From Shigella phage SH7, in the sequence record KX828711: 64,000 bases of DNA, one strand, 5' to 3'. The notes beneath the pieces are model-generated. The model had not been told where the DNA came from. It ran no database searches and saw nothing but the letters and a program-made list of their open reading frames with translations. This document shows, one piece after another, positions 3,336 through 58,908 of the stretch. A program made the position numbers and the translations under genes. Within the stretch, counting starts at the first letter, position 1; the number at the start of each line of letters is the position of its first letter.

Positions 3336-3411
3336 TGGTCGAGGCAGTAGGGATCGAACCTACGACCTAGGACTTAGAAGGTCCTTGCTCTTCCTTCTGA
3401 GCTATGCCCCG
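3336..3411 (-). tRNA. tRNA-Arg (anticodon UCU)
   Basis: Hand-folded 76-nt cloverleaf: 7-bp acceptor stem, anticodon loop CUUCUAA, T-loop TTCGATC, CCA encoded. Confidence 0.8.
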
Positions 3412-3415
3412 TAAT

Positions 3416-3491
3416 TGGGGTGACCGATGGGAGTCGAACCCATGACTACGAGAATCACAATCTCGAGTTCTACCAACTGAACTACGGCCAC
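3416..3491 (-). tRNA. tRNA-His (anticodon GUG)
   Basis: 76-nt cloverleaf, anticodon loop UUGUGAU, discriminator C, CCA encoded; no encoded G at -1. Confidence 0.6.
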
Positions 3492-3604
3492 ATTAATACC
3501 TACTCCAACAATCAAGATGTCTTCACACGAAATTAAGAGAAGAGTGATCAGTTCAACCCCGATAATCGCGTCAAGTAGATATTAATGTGACAGTTGTCAC
3601 AAAT
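3492..3604 (-). other. 113-nt spacer inside the tRNA array with no cloverleaf; possible small stable RNA
   Basis: tRNA-sized gap between tRNA-Asn and tRNA-His; contains the inverted repeat TGTGACA-N2-TGTCACA next to the tRNA-Asn 3' end. Confidence 0.3.
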
Positions 3605-3680
3605 TTGGCGGACGTGATAGGATTCGAACCTATAACCAATCGCTTAACAGGCGATCGCTCTGCCATTGAGCTACACATCC
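3605..3680 (-). tRNA. tRNA-Asn (anticodon GUU)
   Basis: 76-nt cloverleaf, anticodon loop CUGUUAA, T-loop TTCGAAT, CCA encoded. Confidence 0.75.
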
Positions 3681-3684
3681 AAAT

Positions 3685-3771
3685 TGGTGGGGAGTGATGG
3701 AGTCGAACCACCCGAGTCGCAATGACAATGGATTTACAGTCCACACCGCTACCTCTACGGGATAACTCCCC
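3685..3771 (-). tRNA. tRNA-Tyr (anticodon GUA), long variable arm
   Basis: 87-nt type II cloverleaf, anticodon loop CUGUAAA, acceptor GGGGAGT/ACTCCCC, CCA encoded. Confidence 0.7.
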
Positions 3772-3784
3772 TTAATTCTTAATT

Positions 3785-3859
3785 TGGTGGCCCTAGGTGG
3801 AATTGAACCACCATCTGGCGATTATGAGTCGCTTGCTTGAACCTTCCAGCTACAGGGCC
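3785..3859 (-). tRNA. tRNA with CAU anticodon (Ile lysidine-type as in T4, or Met)
   Basis: 75-nt cloverleaf, anticodon loop CUCAUAA; sits at the position of T4 tRNA-Ile in the conserved order. Confidence 0.7.
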
Positions 3860-3860
3860 T

Positions 3861-3936
3861 TGGTGCTGATTGACGGAATCGAACCGCCGACCTTCTCATT
3901 ACAAGTGAGTTGCTCTACCTACTGAGCTAAATCAGC
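3861..3936 (-). tRNA. tRNA-Thr (anticodon UGU)
   Basis: 76-nt cloverleaf, anticodon loop CUUGUAA, CCA encoded. Confidence 0.8.
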
Positions 3937-3941
3937 AAAAC

Positions 3942-4031
3942 TGGCGGAGGCAATAGGATTTGAACCTATGAGTCGCCGGAGCGACTGCCGGTTTTCAAGA
4001 CCGGTGCATTAAACCACTCTGCCACGCCTCC
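3942..4031 (-). tRNA. tRNA-Ser (anticodon UGA), long variable arm
   Basis: 90-nt type II cloverleaf GGAGGCGTGGCAGAGTGG..., anticodon loop CUUGAAA; matches recalled T4 tRNA-Ser. Confidence 0.85.
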
Positions 4032-4033
4032 AG

Positions 4034-4107
4034 TCTCCATACAAGGATTTGAACCTTGGACCTCCTGATCCCAAATCAGGCGCTCTACCAAACTGAGCTA
4101 CACGGAG
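4034..4107 (-). tRNA. tRNA-Pro (anticodon UGG), CCA not encoded
   Basis: Cloverleaf CTCCGTGTAGCTCAGTTTGGTAGAGC..., anticodon loop UUUGGGA. Confidence 0.85.
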
Positions 4108-4117
4108 TAAATTAAAT

Positions 4118-4191
<74 letters not shown>

Positions 4192-4196
4192 AAATT

Positions 4197-4283
4197 TGGT
4201 GCGAGAAGTGGGACTCGAACCCACAAGGAAATCATTCCGCAGCATTTTAAGTGCTGTGCCTTTACCAATTTGACCATTCTCGC
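4197..4283 (-). tRNA. tRNA-Leu (anticodon UAA), long variable arm
   Basis: 87-nt type II cloverleaf GCGAGAATGGTCAAATTGG..., anticodon loop CUUAAAA, CCA encoded. Confidence 0.85.
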
Positions 4284-4284
4284 G

Positions 4285-4357
4285 CTGGGAATAAAGGACT
4301 CGAACCTTTGCATCCTGGAATCAAAATCCAGTGCCTTACCAACTTGGCTAATTCCCA
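4285..4357 (-). tRNA. tRNA-Gln (anticodon UUG), CCA not encoded
   Basis: Cloverleaf TGGGAATTAGCCAAGTTGG..., anticodon loop UUUUGAU. Confidence 0.85.
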
Positions 4358-51744: not shown

Positions 51745-52709
51745 TGTATTCTTTAGAGGAATTTAATAATCAAGCAATAAACGCAGATTTCCAACGTAAT
51801 AATATGTTTAGCTGCGTTTTTGCGACAACTCCATCAACTAAAAGCTCATCGTTGATAAGTTCAATTAGCAATTTTTCTTATAATAACTTGGGTCTAAATT
51901 CAGATTGGTTAGGATTGTCTCAAGGCGATATTAATCAGGGAATTACAACGTTAATTACAGCTGGCACACAAAAACTAATAAGAAAATCAGGAGTCAGTAA
52001 ATATCTTATTGGTGCCATGAGTCAACGTACTGTCCAGAGTTTATTAGGCTCATTTACAGTTGGTACATATTTAATTGACTTCTTTAACATGGCATATAAC
52101 TCATCTGGATTGATGATATACTCTGTAAAAATGCCAGAGAATAGATTATCCTATGAAACTGACTGGAACTATAATTCTCCTAATATTCGTATAACTGGAA
52201 GAGAATTAGACCCTTTGGTTATTTCATTTAGAATGGATTCAGAAGCTTGTAACTATCGTGCAATGCAAGACTGGGTTAACGCTGTTCAAGACCCAGTAAC
52301 TGGATTGCGTGCTTTACCGCAAGATGTCGAGGCAGATATTCAGGTCAATCTTCATTCTCGCAATGGATTACCACATACTGCGGTGATGTTCACTGGCTGT
52401 ATTCCAATATCTGTGAGTGCTCCTGAGTTATCATATGATGGAGATAACCAAATAACTACATTTGATGTTACTTTCGCTTATAGAGTCATGCAGGCTGGAG
52501 CAGTTGATAGACAAGCTGCCCTTGAATGGCTTGAATCTGCTACTATAAATGGTATTCAAAGCGTTCTCGGAAATAGTGGAGGTGTTACTGGACTATCTAA
52601 TTCGCTTTCACGACTTAGTAGATTAGGGGGAACTGCAGGAAGCATTTCAAATATTAATACTATGACAGGAATTGTCAATTCGCAAAGTAAAATATTAGGA
52701 GCAATATAA
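51744..52709 (+). CDS. 54: gp54 baseplate tail tube initiator
   Basis: 321 aa, T4 order. Confidence 0.95.
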   Translation: MYSLEEFNNQAINADFQRNNMFSCVFATTPSTKSSSLISSISNFSYNNLGLNSDWLGLSQGDINQGITTLITAGTQKLIRKSGVSKYLIGAMSQRTVQSLLGSFTVGTYLIDFFNMAYNSSGLMIYSVKMPENRLSYETDWNYNSPNIRITGRELDPLVISFRMDSEACNYRAMQDWVNAVQDPVTGLRALPQDVEADIQVNLHSRNGLPHTAVMFTGCIPISVSAPELSYDGDNQITTFDVTFAYRVMQAGAVDRQAALEWLESATINGIQSVLGNSGGVTGLSNSLSRLSRLGGTAGSISNINTMTGIVNSQSKILGAI

Positions 52710-52711
52710 CA

Positions 52712-52733
52712 ATGGGGACCGAAAGGTCCCCAT
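52712..52733. terminator. bidirectional terminator between gene 54 and the alt block
   Basis: ATGGGGACC-GAAA-GGTCCCCAT hairpin flanked by T/A runs, between convergent genes. Confidence 0.7.
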
Positions 52734-52737
52734 ATTT

Positions 52738-53028
52738 TTATTTACGGAATGAAATAAAGGCAGCAACTGAAGCAACAGAGGTTTCTTCAATATAAACCTC
52801 AATTTTTACCGGAGCTTCTGACTCAAATTTACCTGTTACTACACCTTGGAAAATACTTTCAGTCTGTTCTGGCTTTGAAAAATTTTCAGAAGGAAAAATT
52901 CCAAACTTTTTATCGGTTCCGAAAATTTTAATAAATTCATCGTAAACTGCTTCATTAAAAGCATTATCAGCAGGAATAACGCCTTCAACTACAAGTTCTT
53001 GACCTAAAAAGCGCAAAGAAGATTTCAT
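52738..53028 (-). CDS. hypothetical protein (96 aa; T4 alt.-3 position)
   Basis: ORF track; GAGGAA RBS; early promoter-like element upstream; N-terminus MKSSLRFLGQE loosely CTS-like. Confidence 0.6.
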   Translation of the reverse strand: MKSSLRFLGQELVVEGVIPADNAFNEAVYDEFIKIFGTDKKFGIFPSENFSKPEQTESIFQGVVTGKFESEAPVKIEVYIEETSVASVAAFISFRK

Positions 53029-53059
53029 TTTGTGTTCCTCATGTTATGTCAGTAAGACT

Positions 53060-53089
53060 ACTATAACACAACACGAGGGACTTGTAAAC
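53060..53089 (-). promoter_or_regulatory. T4-type early promoter-like element
   Basis: Minus strand GTTTACA, 17 nt, TATAGT, overlapping the 3' end of the Alt paralog. Confidence 0.45.
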
Positions 53090-55146
53090 TACATTTTGAA
53101 CTTTTTAGACATTCCGTTAATGTTAACCAAAGAAGCTAAGATTTGAGAAACTTCGTTTTCCTCTTCTTTTGATTCTTCTACAAGGAATTGATTAAATCCA
53201 GCCATTGGACGAACTTCACCAGTTTCCATTAGATGGTCGCCATCATATACTGATTCTTCTAATTGTTCAGAAGGAGGAACGATTGTACCTTCGATTAGAT
53301 ACTTGTTATAAGCAGTTTCTTTCATAAAGTAAGTACTTACTTTATTAATCTTCAGTAAAATTCCACGTGGTAGAATAACTTCAGCTTCTGATGGAAATCC
53401 TGATAAATGACCCGGAACGATAACTTTAACTCGTTCAGCTCCTTTAATTACCATACCCACGCTAGTTTCAGCATCTTCATTAGCATATGTAGAATGACTA
53501 CCCATATGCATCAAATCTTCTGCATCAACGGAACCTTCTCCTTCACCAGAAAATACTGCTCCGGAATCATCTAAGGCCATATAATTTTTACCATACTCAC
53601 CAAAGATATTTGGTTTAAGTGATGTAGATACGAAGTTCTTGAAATAGAACATTTTATTTTCAATGTTATGACGCAAAGTTTTAAAAGTAACTTCTTGTCC
53701 ACGGTAAAGTGTAGTTCCTGGAGGAAGAACTGAACCTTTAGCAAACGCAGAATCCATAGTCTCGATGTGCTTAATAGCGCGCTCCATGTATTCTTCACGT
53801 GTAGAATCAGGTTTACCTAAAAGGAATGAGTTCATTTCAACATACGAATCTGCACAATAATCTTCAATTACATCAGATTCAGCCTGAGTCAATCCTTTTG
53901 GAGTTACTTCAGTGCTTGCATATTCATACGCCTGAGCAGCGGATTCATCAATTAATTTATAAATGCCATTCATGACAAATTGAATAATAGCTGTCTTTTC
54001 ATCTGGCGTAGCTTTAGAACCTTTAACTAAATCATTGACAATTTTCTTAATAACATCAAAGCTATTAGAAATATTAATGTCAGCAAGATCGCTTAAAATT
54101 TTATCAGTTTTATAATCAAAAAATTCTTTATTCTTTAAATATTCTTGAGAACTTTGATATGTTATATCGCTCTGCAACTTGATAGATGGATCACGTAAAC
54201 GTGCATGGGCTAATGCAATATGACTTCGGAAGCTTTCTAGTTCATAATCACTAGATTTAAAACGAGAAGCACTCCTCATATCACCGATAGCTCCTTTGCC
54301 GAAGTTTGAACCAATCTGAATAACGCCAGAGTTCATTGGTCCTTCTGCTTTATATACCGGAACTTTAGATTCAAACTCTTGATATTTCTTAGCAGCAAAG
54401 CTATCACCCTGAAGTGAAGCATCAACAGTAGAATATTGAGCTTGTGCTGCTAATCGACGACTAATTTTAGTTTTCTGAATAACAGCTTGATCCGTACGCT
54501 TATCATTTTCTAAAGCAATAGAAGCAGCAACTGCGACAGCTTTAGGAACAGCATTACCTGTTTTAACGTCTACATAAACATCACCGACTTTCGATTCAAC
54601 TTTTGTGAATAACTCAGTTGAAATAGGAGGTACACCTGGAATGTCTTCTAAATTGGCATTTTTACGGTAAACCATAATATATGCATATTTCTTATCATAG
54701 TCCCAGATTTCCTTTAAAAGAACATATCGACCTGCTCCTTTAGTACGTACTAAACGGTCAGCAATAACTTGCATTTGACGAGCAGCGCCATTTGTTTTAC
54801 TTTTTAGTACGCGGAATAGGCATGCATCAATTTTATACTGTTTCATTGTTTGAAGAGCAGTATCAAAAACAGCATTAATGACGCCAATTGGATTTCCACC
54901 CAAGTTTTTAAGCTTAACTAATGATAATTTTTCATTAACACCTATCATTACGATATGCATCATTTTGTCGCCTGGCTTAACGTTTTTATTCGTATCACCG
55001 CCAGAGGTGTATGTACAAAATCTAAATCCAGGAAGCACGCTTTCTTCACCGGCTTGAATAGCAAAAATTTGTGGTATTTTATGCTTAGGATTTAAGTTAA
55101 CAACCGGCGCCGAAGCGCCGTCAAATAATTCTGTAATAAGTTCCAT
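53089..55146 (-). CDS. Alt-family ADP-ribosyltransferase paralog (685 aa), tandem to alt
   Basis: Same N-terminus MELITELFD and conserved first 240 aa as the adjacent alt; divergent middle; C-terminal ART-like core with R (LYRGQ), STS (FVSTSL) and ExE (SEAEVILPRG); AAGGA RBS 3 nt after the alt stop. Confidence 0.85.
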   Translation of the reverse strand: MELITELFDGASAPVVNLNPKHKIPQIFAIQAGEESVLPGFRFCTYTSGGDTNKNVKPGDKMMHIVMIGVNEKLSLVKLKNLGGNPIGVINAVFDTALQTMKQYKIDACLFRVLKSKTNGAARQMQVIADRLVRTKGAGRYVLLKEIWDYDKKYAYIMVYRKNANLEDIPGVPPISTELFTKVESKVGDVYVDVKTGNAVPKAVAVAASIALENDKRTDQAVIQKTKISRRLAAQAQYSTVDASLQGDSFAAKKYQEFESKVPVYKAEGPMNSGVIQIGSNFGKGAIGDMRSASRFKSSDYELESFRSHIALAHARLRDPSIKLQSDITYQSSQEYLKNKEFFDYKTDKILSDLADINISNSFDVIKKIVNDLVKGSKATPDEKTAIIQFVMNGIYKLIDESAAQAYEYASTEVTPKGLTQAESDVIEDYCADSYVEMNSFLLGKPDSTREEYMERAIKHIETMDSAFAKGSVLPPGTTLYRGQEVTFKTLRHNIENKMFYFKNFVSTSLKPNIFGEYGKNYMALDDSGAVFSGEGEGSVDAEDLMHMGSHSTYANEDAETSVGMVIKGAERVKVIVPGHLSGFPSEAEVILPRGILLKINKVSTYFMKETAYNKYLIEGTIVPPSEQLEESVYDGDHLMETGEVRPMAGFNQFLVEESKEEENEVSQILASLVNINGMSKKFKM

Positions 55147-55149
55147 GAT

Positions 55150-57207
55150 TTATCCTTGAACGAACTTGTAAGGCATGTTTGTAATATCTATGCAAGACGC
55201 AATAATTCCAAGAGATGATTCTACTTTCTGTTTAACATTTGATGAAACAAATGATGCAAAGTCAACTCTGTCTTCTATTTCAATATCACCTGTCATTGCA
55301 ACCAATTCACCAGTTTCCATTAGACGGTCACCGTCATAAATGACTGATTCGGTGAGTTCTTCCGTAGTCATAACTTCAGCTTGAATAAGCTTGTTGTTAG
55401 TTTTGACTGTTCCATCATTGTAAGATGCATCAGTTATTTTATTAACTTTGACCATTAATCCACGTGGCAAAATGACTTCCATTTCATTTGAAGGCGCTAA
55501 ACTTCCGCCTGGTAAAACAACATTGACTTTATCAGCCCCAGTAATAACCCATCCAATTCCGACTAAATTATCGCTAGAATTAACAAGCCCTTCATCATTT
55601 TTATCGATAGAAATGTTTAGACGCTTTTCATCTGGTAAAACACCAACAGCTGAATCAGTCATCCAAGTACCAAAAATGTTTGGATATAATGATGTTGATA
55701 CAAAATTTCTAAAATAAAAAACTCGATTTTTTACCAATGCTTCATATATTGAAGGTAACATTCGCTGTGAACGATATAAAGTAATACCCTTTGGCAATCG
55801 ATCACCATTTTTAAAGGCTGAATCTAAATTATCGATGGCTTGTTCTATTTCAGGTGCTGTTAAAATACTTGTACGCTCATCTGGATTATATAATCCCAAA
55901 AGAGCATTATTCATGTCTACATATCCTGAACCTACATATTCACGAATTCCGCGTTTTTGCGCTGGCGTGTATTTAGATGAATCTTTATTTTCGACTATAG
56001 AATGCAATGACCATCCAACAGTAAGAGCATATCCACGTAATTCTCTTCGAATAATCTTTGTTTTTATTGCATTCCAAGAATTTTGCACTAACTCATTATT
56101 CGCAGTGTCTTGATTTAAATGCGAATGCTTGTTAATATTTCTTTCTAACCAAGCACCTTTATATTTTTCTAAAGTATCATCGACTATAGAAGCAATAGTT
56201 TCTAAAGTTTTTATTGAAGTAATAGATTCTTTTCGTAATCTTTCTAAAGCTTTATTTTTTATTTCTGTATTAACATCAGATTCTTTATCTTCAGGAATTA
56301 TAGAAGCTTCTCTGAATGCCATTCCAGCTGTAACACTATTAAGAGCATTCTCTAATGCAAATCCTGAAGTAGAAATAACAGTTAATTCATTAGCATCAGA
56401 AATTAAAGGAGCGTCAGCGGGTTTATTTAATTCTGCTGCTGAAGCCTCAAATTTTTGAAACATCGGCGTTTCAAATCTAGAAGATTCCAACGACTGACTT
56501 TGTGCAATTGCTCTACGGGAAATTTTAACTTTAACGATTACAGCTTGGTCAGAACGTTTATCATTTTCTTGTGCAATAGATGCTGCAATTGCCTCATTTT
56601 TAGTTACTTGGGCTCCAGTATCTTTATTGATATAAACATCACCGACCTTCGATTCAACTTTAGTAAAGAGCTCGGTACTAATTTCCGGAACTCCTGGAAT
56701 GTCTTCTAGTGATACATTTTTGCGATGTATAAGAATATATGCATACTTTTTATCATAATCCCAGAGTTCCTTAAGAAGGACGTATCTGCCACCTGAACGA
56801 CTACGGATAAGTCTATCAGCAATAACTTGAATTTGTCGAGCTTGGCCAGCAGTTTTAGACTTAAGAATACGAAGCATACAAGCATCAATTTTATACTGAC
56901 GCATCGTTTGCATTGCAACAGTAAAAACTGAATTGATATAATTAATTGGGCTTGGACCAAGACCTTTTAATTTAGCAATTGAACCTTTAGCAGTTAATGT
57001 AAAAGGAACAATATGCATCATTTTATCGCCCATTTTTAAATCGCGATTAGTATCACCTCCAGATGTATAGGTACATAAACGAAAGCCTGGTTGTTCAATT
57101 GCGTCATCGACATGAACTGAAAAAATTTGTGGTATCTTCTTCTTTGGATTTAAGTTTGTAATCGGAAGAGTAGTATCTTCGTCAAATAATTCTGTAATAA
57201 GTTCCAT
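55150..57207 (-). CDS. alt: Alt ADP-ribosyltransferase (packaged in the capsid, modifies host RNA polymerase)
   Basis: 685 aa from second ATG; recognised as T4 Alt-like; ART motifs LYRSQ, FVSTSL, NEMEVILPRG; late promoter upstream. Confidence 0.92.
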   Translation of the reverse strand: MELITELFDEDTTLPITNLNPKKKIPQIFSVHVDDAIEQPGFRLCTYTSGGDTNRDLKMGDKMMHIVPFTLTAKGSIAKLKGLGPSPINYINSVFTVAMQTMRQYKIDACMLRILKSKTAGQARQIQVIADRLIRSRSGGRYVLLKELWDYDKKYAYILIHRKNVSLEDIPGVPEISTELFTKVESKVGDVYINKDTGAQVTKNEAIAASIAQENDKRSDQAVIVKVKISRRAIAQSQSLESSRFETPMFQKFEASAAELNKPADAPLISDANELTVISTSGFALENALNSVTAGMAFREASIIPEDKESDVNTEIKNKALERLRKESITSIKTLETIASIVDDTLEKYKGAWLERNINKHSHLNQDTANNELVQNSWNAIKTKIIRRELRGYALTVGWSLHSIVENKDSSKYTPAQKRGIREYVGSGYVDMNNALLGLYNPDERTSILTAPEIEQAIDNLDSAFKNGDRLPKGITLYRSQRMLPSIYEALVKNRVFYFRNFVSTSLYPNIFGTWMTDSAVGVLPDEKRLNISIDKNDEGLVNSSDNLVGIGWVITGADKVNVVLPGGSLAPSNEMEVILPRGLMVKVNKITDASYNDGTVKTNNKLIQAEVMTTEELTESVIYDGDRLMETGELVAMTGDIEIEDRVDFASFVSSNVKQKVESSLGIIASCIDITNMPYKFVQG

Positions 57208-57230
57208 CATATCCTCTCTAGTGTTTATTC

Positions 57231-57238
57231 TATTTATA
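57231..57238 (-). promoter_or_regulatory. late promoter TATAAATA for alt
   Basis: Exact TATAAATA on minus strand between a terminator hairpin and the alt RBS. Confidence 0.6.
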
Positions 57239-57243
57239 AAATT

Positions 57244-57261
57244 AAAGGCCCGAAGGCCTTT
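57244..57261 (-). terminator. hairpin AAAGGCC-TTCG-GGCCTTT after ORF 57260..57448
   Basis: 7-bp stem with tetraloop, T-run on minus strand. Confidence 0.55.
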
Positions 57262-57448
57262 AGTAATCTAGTGGTAAGAGAGTACGATATATTTCAAACT
57301 TTGGTCCTTTTTCATAGGCATCAAATGTTTCTGTAAATTTATTGTAAGCGTATGCATCTACAAATTCGAGAATGACTTGTGATACAGAAGTAGAAACATC
57401 TCCACCTTCTTTTTGAGCAATGACAATTGTTTCTAAGTAAGCTTTCAT
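57260..57448 (-). CDS. hypothetical protein (62 aa; T4 alt.1 position)
   Basis: ORF track; overlaps the stop of gene 30. Confidence 0.6.
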   Translation of the reverse strand: MKAYLETIVIAQKEGGDVSTSVSQVILEFVDAYAYNKFTETFDAYEKGPKFEIYRTLLPLDY

Positions 57449-58908
57449 AAACCAGTTACCTCATGAAAATCACCAAATACATCCTCGAATGTATTAGCTT
57501 TAGTTTTATCTTCACGTAAACGAATCGCAATCGGAAGAAATAATTTAACGTAATCGGTGCGGCCATCAGATTTTAACCAACCGTTGCATTCGCACTCTAG
57601 AATTTTTCCAATATAATAATTTTGGTTTTCCATAATGCGAGTACGGTCAAGTTCATGCGATTTTACACCGGCTTTATCTTTTAAGCCTGAACCAGCATTT
57701 ACTTTAATTTTTCCACACTCTGACTCAAGAATAAATCCACCAGCTTTAGTAGGGTCTTTACGGTGAGGATAAATTCCTACAATTTTTAAATCAACATCAA
57801 TTACTTCTTTAAATTTATAAAGATTTTTTGAACGAGCATTTTCCCATAATCCATCGGTATTTTTGAGAATAATACCTTCAAGACCTTGGTCAATATACTT
57901 TTTGTAAATTACCTTAGCTTCATCTAGGTTATTTACTAGCTGGTTTTCAATTAAAATTACTTTATCATAGCCTGATGTCATTTGTTCTAGTTTAGAAAAA
58001 CGTACATCATACTTTAAACGAAATGCAGGAAGACCATATATTTCTACTAATGGAACATAGTCCCAGACCTGAAACTTCATGCATTGAGCTTCTTTTTCTG
58101 AAATAGTTCCCTTTAAAGATTTATTAGCGATTCCATTAGAAGCAGTACGTGATTCAGCTACTTCGGCGAATTCTTTAGCTTTACTAATTTCAGGATAAGC
58201 ATCAAAAAGAAAATCTAGGCCTTCTGGCTCCTTTTTAACTTGCTCATGGTATACCAATTCGCCATCAATTAACACACCTTCTGGATGAATCTGGCGAGCT
58301 TCTGCAGTCATTTTAATTAACTCTTCCTTAAGAAGATCTAATCCTAGATATTCATTACCAGCTCGTGATAAAAGACGAACATCATCTAATTCATCACCTC
58401 TGACTTCAGCAAAGCACCGAGCTCCATCAGCTTTTAATTGGGCAAAGGCTGGAAATTTGATATTCTTATTAATGCCTTTTTCATCATAAGAACTTGCCAG
58501 CATTTGAGGTTGTTCAGGAATTAAACCTGGCCAAACTTTGTTTGCAATAGATACTGAAGCACCGCATTCAAGGTCTCGCATCATCACCCGACGCAAAACT
58601 TCAACATCATCTTTTTTACCGTCAGTAATATATCCAGTTAATTCCTCAATTGCCGCATTTCCGGTCAATTTCCGAGTAGCTAACGTGAATTCAATGAAGT
58701 CAAGCATATCGGTAAGAGTTAACATTCCAAAACTCTGGGTAGCAATACCCGGTTTAGGCCATTTCTTGATATAATACTGTAACCCACGAGAATAAGTCAG
58801 ACGATATACTCGTTTAAGCAATTCATTATCTTTATTCTTTTCAAGAATTGCTTGCTTCTGTTTAGTTGAACCAATAGATGCTATTTCATTCAGAATTTTA
58901 AGAATCAT
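57445..58908 (-). CDS. 30: gp30 ATP-dependent DNA ligase
   Basis: 487 aa; N-terminus MILKILNEIASIGSTKQKQAILEKNKDNELLKRVYRL... and adenylation motif KADGAR recognised as T4 DNA ligase. Confidence 0.97.
   Translation of the reverse strand: MILKILNEIASIGSTKQKQAILEKNKDNELLKRVYRLTYSRGLQYYIKKWPKPGIATQSFGMLTLTDMLDFIEFTLATRKLTGNAAIEELTGYITDGKKDDVEVLRRVMMRDLECGASVSIANKVWPGLIPEQPQMLASSYDEKGINKNIKFPAFAQLKADGARCFAEVRGDELDDVRLLSRAGNEYLGLDLLKEELIKMTAEARQIHPEGVLIDGELVYHEQVKKEPEGLDFLFDAYPEISKAKEFAEVAESRTASNGIANKSLKGTISEKEAQCMKFQVWDYVPLVEIYGLPAFRLKYDVRFSKLEQMTSGYDKVILIENQLVNNLDEAKVIYKKYIDQGLEGIILKNTDGLWENARSKNLYKFKEVIDVDLKIVGIYPHRKDPTKAGGFILESECGKIKVNAGSGLKDKAGVKSHELDRTRIMENQNYYIGKILECECNGWLKSDGRTDYVKLFLPIAIRLREDKTKANTFEDVFGDFHEVTGL

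Follow-up and report, generated by a model that had tools for sequence, protein, structure and literature searches.

Tandem full-length genes for two diverged Alt-family proteins, predicted ADP-ribosyltransferases, are the ordinary state of the Tequatrovirus alt region

The window analysed here is a 64,000-nucleotide stretch of the genome of Shigella phage SH7 (sequence record KX828711). Within its alt region the minus strand carries two head-to-tail open reading frames (ORFs) of 685 codons, at 55150..57207 (the upstream gene or copy) and at 53089..55146 (the downstream gene or copy). Our analysis supports the assignment of both as full-length genes for ADP-ribosyltransferases (ARTs) of the Alt family, with transferase activity predicted from motifs and fold. 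The reading that we prefer, and to which we give a probability of about three in four, is that this is the standard Tequatrovirus alt region, encoding two old and diverged paralogues of a head-packaged arginine ART that most likely have different sets of targets.

The ORF listing extends the upstream frame to 55150..57210, giving a 686-residue product that starts MMELIT from two adjacent ATGs. The second ATG, at 57207, gives a protein of 685 residues starting MELITELFD, as T4 alt is annotated. The downstream protein has the same N-terminus, and the junction between the genes reads gga-TAA-atc-ATG, leaving a spacer of 3 nt. The two proteins are 42% identical (BLASTP, E = 2e-158), and a codon-aware comparison resolves this into 68% amino-acid identity at residues 1-238 and 33% thereafter. 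Identity between the paralogues is about 13-46% in the middle regions, in the long loop that leads from STS to ExE and in the segment just before ExE (the ARTT region). The catalytic-motif strings are LYRSQ, FVSTSL and NEMEVILPRG in the upstream protein and LYRGQ, FVSTSL and SEAEVILPRG in the downstream protein. An earlier reading of this DNA made from the letters alone (the sequence-only reading) had described two minus-strand ORFs of 685 residues 3 nt apart, a shared MELITELFD start with a conserved N-terminal 240 residues, strongly differing middle regions and these motif strings. All were recovered, the strings exactly as quoted, and the pairwise alignment that it had proposed gave the overall identity reported above.

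Synonymous sites are saturated between the paralogues, with a synonymous distance (dS) of 1.35 overall and 1.43 in the N-terminal domain. This saturation indicates that the duplication is old and that the N-terminal likeness has been kept by selection on the protein. Recent gene conversion as the source of that likeness is rejected by the N-terminal dS and by a four-fold-site identity of about 45%. Each paralogue is separately under strong purifying selection, the ratio of non-synonymous to synonymous divergence (dN/dS) being 0.03-0.09. For the downstream gene, compared among the window, T2 and AR1 at a dS of 0.12-0.18, dN/dS is about 0.05 for the whole gene and 0.02-0.04 within the ART domain, a pattern that marks a functioning protein-coding gene. 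The two genes open with the same 28 nt (ATGGAACTTATTACAGAATTATTTGACG; 55119-55146 and 57180-57207), in a pair whose silent sites are saturated elsewhere. Selection on the sequence around translation initiation or on the peptide that is cleaved off could account for this, as could a conversion tract of very short length.

These figures bear on the possibility that the genes are redundant dosage duplicates that act on the same targets, chiefly Arg265 of the RNA polymerase alpha subunit, the second copy only raising the amount of injected ART. The copies are indeed alike in domain architecture and in catalytic motifs, both carry the ExE signature of arginine-type enzymes, and T4 grows without the second copy. 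However, the identity of only 33% outside the N-terminal domain, the saturated synonymous sites and the separate purifying selection on each paralogue argue against simple dosage, under which the lasting retention of so strongly diverged a pair, both members of which are kept in about 80% of records, would be unexpected. We consider redundancy unlikely.

Membership of the Alt family was judged by phrog_802 and by PF03496 with PF26846, the last seen in precomputed matches only. Both copies match phrog_802 ("Alt-like RNA polymerase ADP-ribosyltransferase") over their full length, and in Pfam both match PF03496 (ADPrib_exo_Tox) well above threshold (upstream, E = 4e-34; downstream, E = 7.6e-20); neither protein matched in NCBIfam. 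Both also have the R/STS/ExE residues and the Alt-specific N-terminal domain of about 240 residues. The genomic position is likewise that of alt: gene 30 and alt.1 flank the pair on one side and alt.-3 and gene 54 on the other, the baseplate genes are on the opposite strand, and a late promoter precedes the pair.

A sequence search against solved structures returned Vis alone (E = 0.73), and placing the domain required a fold search. The best PDB fold matches of the C-terminal domain in the AlphaFold2 model of the downstream protein (mean predicted local distance difference test score (pLDDT) 71) were Vis, Certhrax, CDTa, C3, iota toxin Ia and VIP2, all of them ARTs of the R-S-E type, with probability 1.00 and a target template-modelling score of about 0.6. 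In an alignment of 19 Alt-family sequences, comprising both paralogue types and JS98-like relatives, R482, S507, S509, E587 and E589 (downstream numbering) are invariant, and the upstream copy carries the corresponding motifs as LYRSQ, STS and EME. In an alignment with T4 ModA and ModB, a comparison that the sequence-only reading had proposed, R482, S507, E587 and E589 coincide with the catalytic residues of those enzymes, at 13-20% identity. The catalytic glutamate, whose loss that reading had offered as a reason to doubt the downstream copy, is thus present as the invariant E587/E589, in a predicted structure with the ART fold. At the C-terminal tails (53089-53260 and 55150-55330), all 19 sequences keep the invariant motif ES.(.)YDGD.LMETGE and a terminal KF, in a region that is disordered in the downstream model (residues 628-669, pLDDT <50). 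Within the motif is an L-x-E site of the gp21 type (LME/T), so that the C-terminus may hold a second signal for processing or packaging.

The gpAlt protein is present at about 40 copies in the prohead core, where gp21 removes a small N-terminal peptide (PMC9958956), annotated in the X15811 alt record as "6 amino acids cleaved off". Packaged Alt enters the host with the DNA, where RNA polymerase is among the host proteins that it ADP-ribosylates (PMC5512222). In SH7 both proteins begin MELITE/L, with an identical I-x-E motif of the gp21 type, which suggests that both are packaged, trimmed and injected and that both act as arginine-specific (ExE) mono-ARTs soon after the next infection begins. 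Yersinia phage PST bears on the same point. It has a single chimeric alt (comparison sequence L004:3501-5561), the first ~100 residues of which are of the upstream type, with dN = 0 against the upstream copy in the window, and the rest of the downstream type. This gene presumably arose by unequal recombination between tandem paralogues that deleted one gene's worth of DNA, and it supports the view that the N-termini are interchangeable.

It could instead be that only the upstream Alt is injected and that the downstream enzyme, left unpackaged, works late in the cell that makes the phage, modifying, for instance, host or phage proteins while assembly is under way. The literature yielded no proteomic evidence of packaging, and the second place in a late operon does not show where a gene product ends up. 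Yet the N-terminal 240 residues are 68% identical between the paralogues despite saturated silent sites, and MELITELFD, with its gp21 I-x-E site, and the first 28 nt are identical in both. The sole alt of PST, by joining an upstream-type N-terminus (residues 1-100) to a downstream-type body, again argues for interchangeable N-termini. Confinement of the downstream enzyme to the producing cell is therefore highly improbable.

The T4-type late promoter box TATAAATA at 57238..57231 is the only exact one within 52600..57400. There is no exact late box between or inside the two alt genes, where only one-mismatch boxes occur, far from the downstream start codon. The simplest reading would be a single late transcript spanning both genes. 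The ribosome-binding site of the downstream gene overlaps the end of the upstream gene, which suggests translational coupling. The sequence-only reading had assigned the upstream copy its own late promoter, as the sole exact box bears out, and had thought the downstream copy probably co-transcribed, an arrangement that the AAGGA site at the end of the upstream gene would fit.

We propose that the single TATAAATA promoter ahead of the upstream copy drives late transcription of both genes, and that the second would be translated from its own AAGGA site at the end of the first. By homology with T4 Alt, the N-terminal ~240 residues of each protein would bring it into the prohead core, gp21 would trim six residues, and both proteins would be ejected along with the DNA. 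In the newly infected cell, each C-terminal R-S-ExE domain would use NAD+ to place ADP-ribose on arginines of host proteins. The upstream enzyme is expected to act like T4 Alt, on RNA polymerase alpha among others. The low identity in the middle regions, the STS-ExE loop and the pre-ExE segment makes different target preferences likely, and a distinct host target for the downstream enzyme is plausible; the two target sets would most likely differ, possibly with some overlap.

Several points weigh against this account. The divergence of targets is argued from sequence divergence alone, and the downstream model is of medium confidence, with pLDDT <50 at the STS-ExE loop (516-540) and the C-terminal tail (628-669). 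Neither virion proteomics nor biochemistry for the downstream protein was found in the searchable literature. T4 and about 100 other phage records are without the downstream enzyme, which indicates that it is dispensable in at least some hosts.

We assessed the distribution of the two genes by megablast against 50,697 phage records. The downstream gene matched 500 records, 400 of them with coverage of at least 80%, at 94-99.5% identity. Intact copies are present in T2, AR1, HP3, PP01 and ime09 and in Shigella, Yersinia, Salmonella and Citrobacter phages, and most of the ~100 other records hold only the first 17% of the gene, like T4. The full-length upstream gene matched 526 records, 173 with coverage of at least 80% (the T4-type allele). 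The second copy is annotated as an Alt-like (RNA polymerase) ADP-ribosyltransferase in T2, AR1, HP3, Sf21 and others, and depositors and RefSeq routinely label both genes as Alt-like ARTs. Thus, the tandem arrangement of intact alt genes is the ordinary, already annotated and already known state of Tequatrovirus. The novelty implied by the sequence-only reading fails on these counts, an intact second copy being found in 400 of the 500 matching records, and annotated in T2, AR1, HP3, Sf21 and others, and the T4 relic being flagged already. What we find is exactly the outcome that it had set against its own proposal, an ordinary arrangement with an intact ORF where T4 has fragments. The searchable literature, the coverage of which is limited, yielded no functional study of the second paralogue beyond a remark in Nolan et al. 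2006 and general reviews of Alt. Alt is mentioned in neither PMC12373910 nor PMC13096335, and the single Alt detected in a Morganella phage proteome has no bearing on the second paralogue.

Laboratory T4 is the derived exception to this two-copy state. It has one alt and the small ORFs alt.-1, alt.-2 and alt.-3; the sequence-only reading had credited T4 with a single alt and small alt.-x ORFs, in agreement with the T4 record, and its identification of the upstream copy as canonical Alt also stands, at 96% identity to T4 Alt. The products of T4 alt.-1 (NP_049810.1) and alt.-2 (NP_049809.1) align nearly residue for residue with residues 1-55 and 62-118 of the downstream protein, and over the first 348 nt the T4 relic and the downstream copy are 96.6% identical in DNA. 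Families phrog_23015 and phrog_15247 match the downstream copy (E = 2e-40 and 3e-38), and the PHROG families built from T4 alt.-1 and alt.-2 fit the downstream copy better than the upstream copy. The T4 DNA is colinear with the window apart from the absence of window bases 53109-54798. In T4, 1,699 bp of the second alt are gone between copies of the 9-bp direct repeat ACTTTTTAG, one copy of which is kept at the junction (T4 comparison sequence L001:6105-6113), and a frameshift splits the remainder into two small ORFs. We read alt.-1 and alt.-2 as what a frameshift and a microhomology deletion of 1,699 bp have left of a second alt that was once full-length, so that T4 would have lost the downstream enzyme in a 1.7-kb microhomology-mediated event. 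The T4 RefSeq record describes these ORFs as a relic of a duplication of "the first part of gene alt", wording that the colinearity and the repeat-bounded gap make slightly misleading. That the downstream copy is itself a catalytically dead or decaying relic heading for the T4 state, or a structural protein of the head core only, is scarcely credible: the remnant in T4-like phages and the single chimeric gene of PST do indicate a locus prone to loss, but the ORF of 685 codons is unbroken both in SH7 and in 400 records, dN/dS in the ART domain is 0.02-0.04, R, STS and ExE are invariant, and the ART fold is recovered in the downstream model.

The canonical alt gene is less conserved across records than the downstream copy. 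When the upstream gene of the window (55150-57207) is compared with that of T2 (L003:3001-5094), the alleles are 98-100% identical at residues 1-250 and ~90-98% identical over the C-terminal ~100 alignment columns, whereas between these conserved ends (residues ~250-650, the helical middle and ART domain) identity is 14-76% and dS is saturated. The central cassette is of the T4 type in 173 records and of the T2/T6 type in 324, these being the records with coverage of at least 80% among 465 and 515 matches to the respective central-region queries. T2 has an intact downstream gene, as here, but its neighbouring upstream alt has the T2/T6-type cassette. The dimorphism looks like modular allele exchange, and the polymorphisms of the alt allele and of the second copy assort independently; slur03, for example, combines a T2-type alt with a T4-like remnant.

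With the downstream gene intact in 400 records and the canonical alt dimorphic, the "extra" copy is the stable member of the pair. This leads to a more tentative proposal, which we hold at somewhat short of even odds: it may be the downstream paralogue, and not canonical Alt, that serves the genus as its conserved injected ART, perhaps with targets of its own such as a defence or translation factor, and alt would be its fast-swapping partner, with two middle-plus-ART cassettes between conserved ends. The basis for this proposal is that about 80% of records have the downstream paralogue intact and that its sequence hardly varies. If the proposal is true, the target set of the downstream enzyme would have escaped fifty years of work on T4 because laboratory T4 had deleted the gene.

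Across the entire locus (window 52700-57500), no deposited phage is more than 97% identical, the best being AR1 at 96.9%. The best relative of the downstream gene is Yersinia phage PYps32T (99.5%) and that of the upstream gene vB_Eco_T-01 (97.4%). Because the nearest relatives differ by segment, the locus is a mosaic.

The locus runs from plus-strand genes 48 and 54 to minus-strand alt.-3, the two ART genes, alt.1, gene 30 (DNA ligase), 30.1 and 30.2, and its features are collected in Table 1. C-terminal extensions of T4 Alt.-3 bring about escape from the CmdTAC defence by blocking CmdA degradation (PMC11618068). Elsewhere in the window, the minus strand carries 11 tRNA genes at 3336-4357 (Arg, His, Asn, Tyr, Met/Ile(CAT), Thr, Ser, Pro, Gly, Leu and Gln); for T4 the number listed is 8 (Table 1 of PMC1524935).

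Table 1. Features of the SH7 alt region, in window coordinates.
Feature	Position	Strand	Remarks
Terminator-like hairpin, bidirectional, 9-bp stem	52712..52733		Between converging gene 54 and alt.-3
alt.-3, 96 aa, DUF5498	52738..53028	-	Last gene of the minus-strand block
Sigma-70/T4-early-like promoter match	53060..53088	-	TTTACA, 17-nt spacer, TG-extended TATAGT; in 60-nt gap before alt.-3
Second full-length Alt paralogue, 685 aa	53089..55146	-	Intact counterpart of T4 alt.-1 + alt.-2
Direct repeat ACTTTTTAG (plus-strand), 9 bp, first copy	53100..53108		T4 deletion junction
ART catalytic domain of downstream copy, aa 416-620	53287..53901	-	Pfam PF03496
Codons E587-A-E589 of downstream copy	53380-53388	-	Catalytic
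Codons S507-T-S509 of downstream copy	53620-53628	-	Catalytic
Codon R482 of downstream copy	53701-53703	-	Catalytic
N-terminal Alt domain of downstream copy, aa 1-240	54427..55146	-	Includes MELITE/L; 68% identical to upstream protein
Direct repeat ACTTTTTAG, second copy	54799..54807		Other end of segment absent from T4
alt, T4-type allele, 685 aa	55150..57207	-	96% identical to T4 Alt; N-terminal Alt domain aa 1-240, helical middle, ART PF03496 aa 375-615, conserved C-terminal tail
Ribosome-binding site AAGGA of downstream copy	55153..55157	-	6 nt before ATG; overlaps alt end (TAA 55152..55150)
T4-type late promoter box TATAAATA	57231..57238	-	Exact match, 23 nt 5' of upstream ATG
GC-rich hairpin + T-run, terminator-like	57243..57262	-	Between alt.1 and late promoter

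As a genome feature the pair is nothing new, since hundreds of deposited T-even genomes annotate it and the T4 record notes the relic. However, knowledge of injected ADP-ribosylation comes almost wholly from T4, which is without the downstream enzyme. T2, T6 and most therapeutic and environmental Tequatrovirus phages would then inject a second, uncharacterised arginine ART. Finding its targets would be useful and straightforward, but not a conceptual surprise.

The locus can be set beside known systems at increasing distance. The upstream copy is the orthologue of T4 Alt (NP_049811.1), with 96% identity, the same place beside alt.1 and gene 30 and the same late-promoter position. The downstream copy has the architecture, N-terminal domain, MELITE/L start and R-S-ExE motifs in common with T4 Alt but is only 42-44% identical to it overall (middle region, ~13-30%; ART domain, ~25-50%). 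Its closer counterpart is T2_202 of T2 (YP_010073850.1), which is 98% identical in protein, lies in the same place and differs in nothing substantive; the equivalents in AR1 (BAI83209.1), HP3, Sf21 and DalCa are the same gene in the same place. In another genus of Tevenvirinae, altA and altB of Gaprivervirus SP18 and JS98 are tandem Alt paralogues lying between gene 30 and alt.-3. These and the paralogues of RB49 and 44RR are 32-38% identical to either copy in the window, without clear one-to-one orthology. Nolan et al. 2006 (PMC1524935) counted RB49ORF183c, 44RRORF188c and T4 alt.-1/alt.-2 among the paralogues of alt, and described 44RRORF187c as what appears to be a duplication of alt over its full length. 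T4 ModA and ModB and the bacterial C3, Vis, VIP2 and iota ARTs have the same ART fold and catalytic R, S and ExE positions as the Alt pair, but they are stand-alone enzymes of ~200 residues or toxin components, 13-20% identical, which are not packaged in the head and are without the N-terminal and middle regions of Alt.

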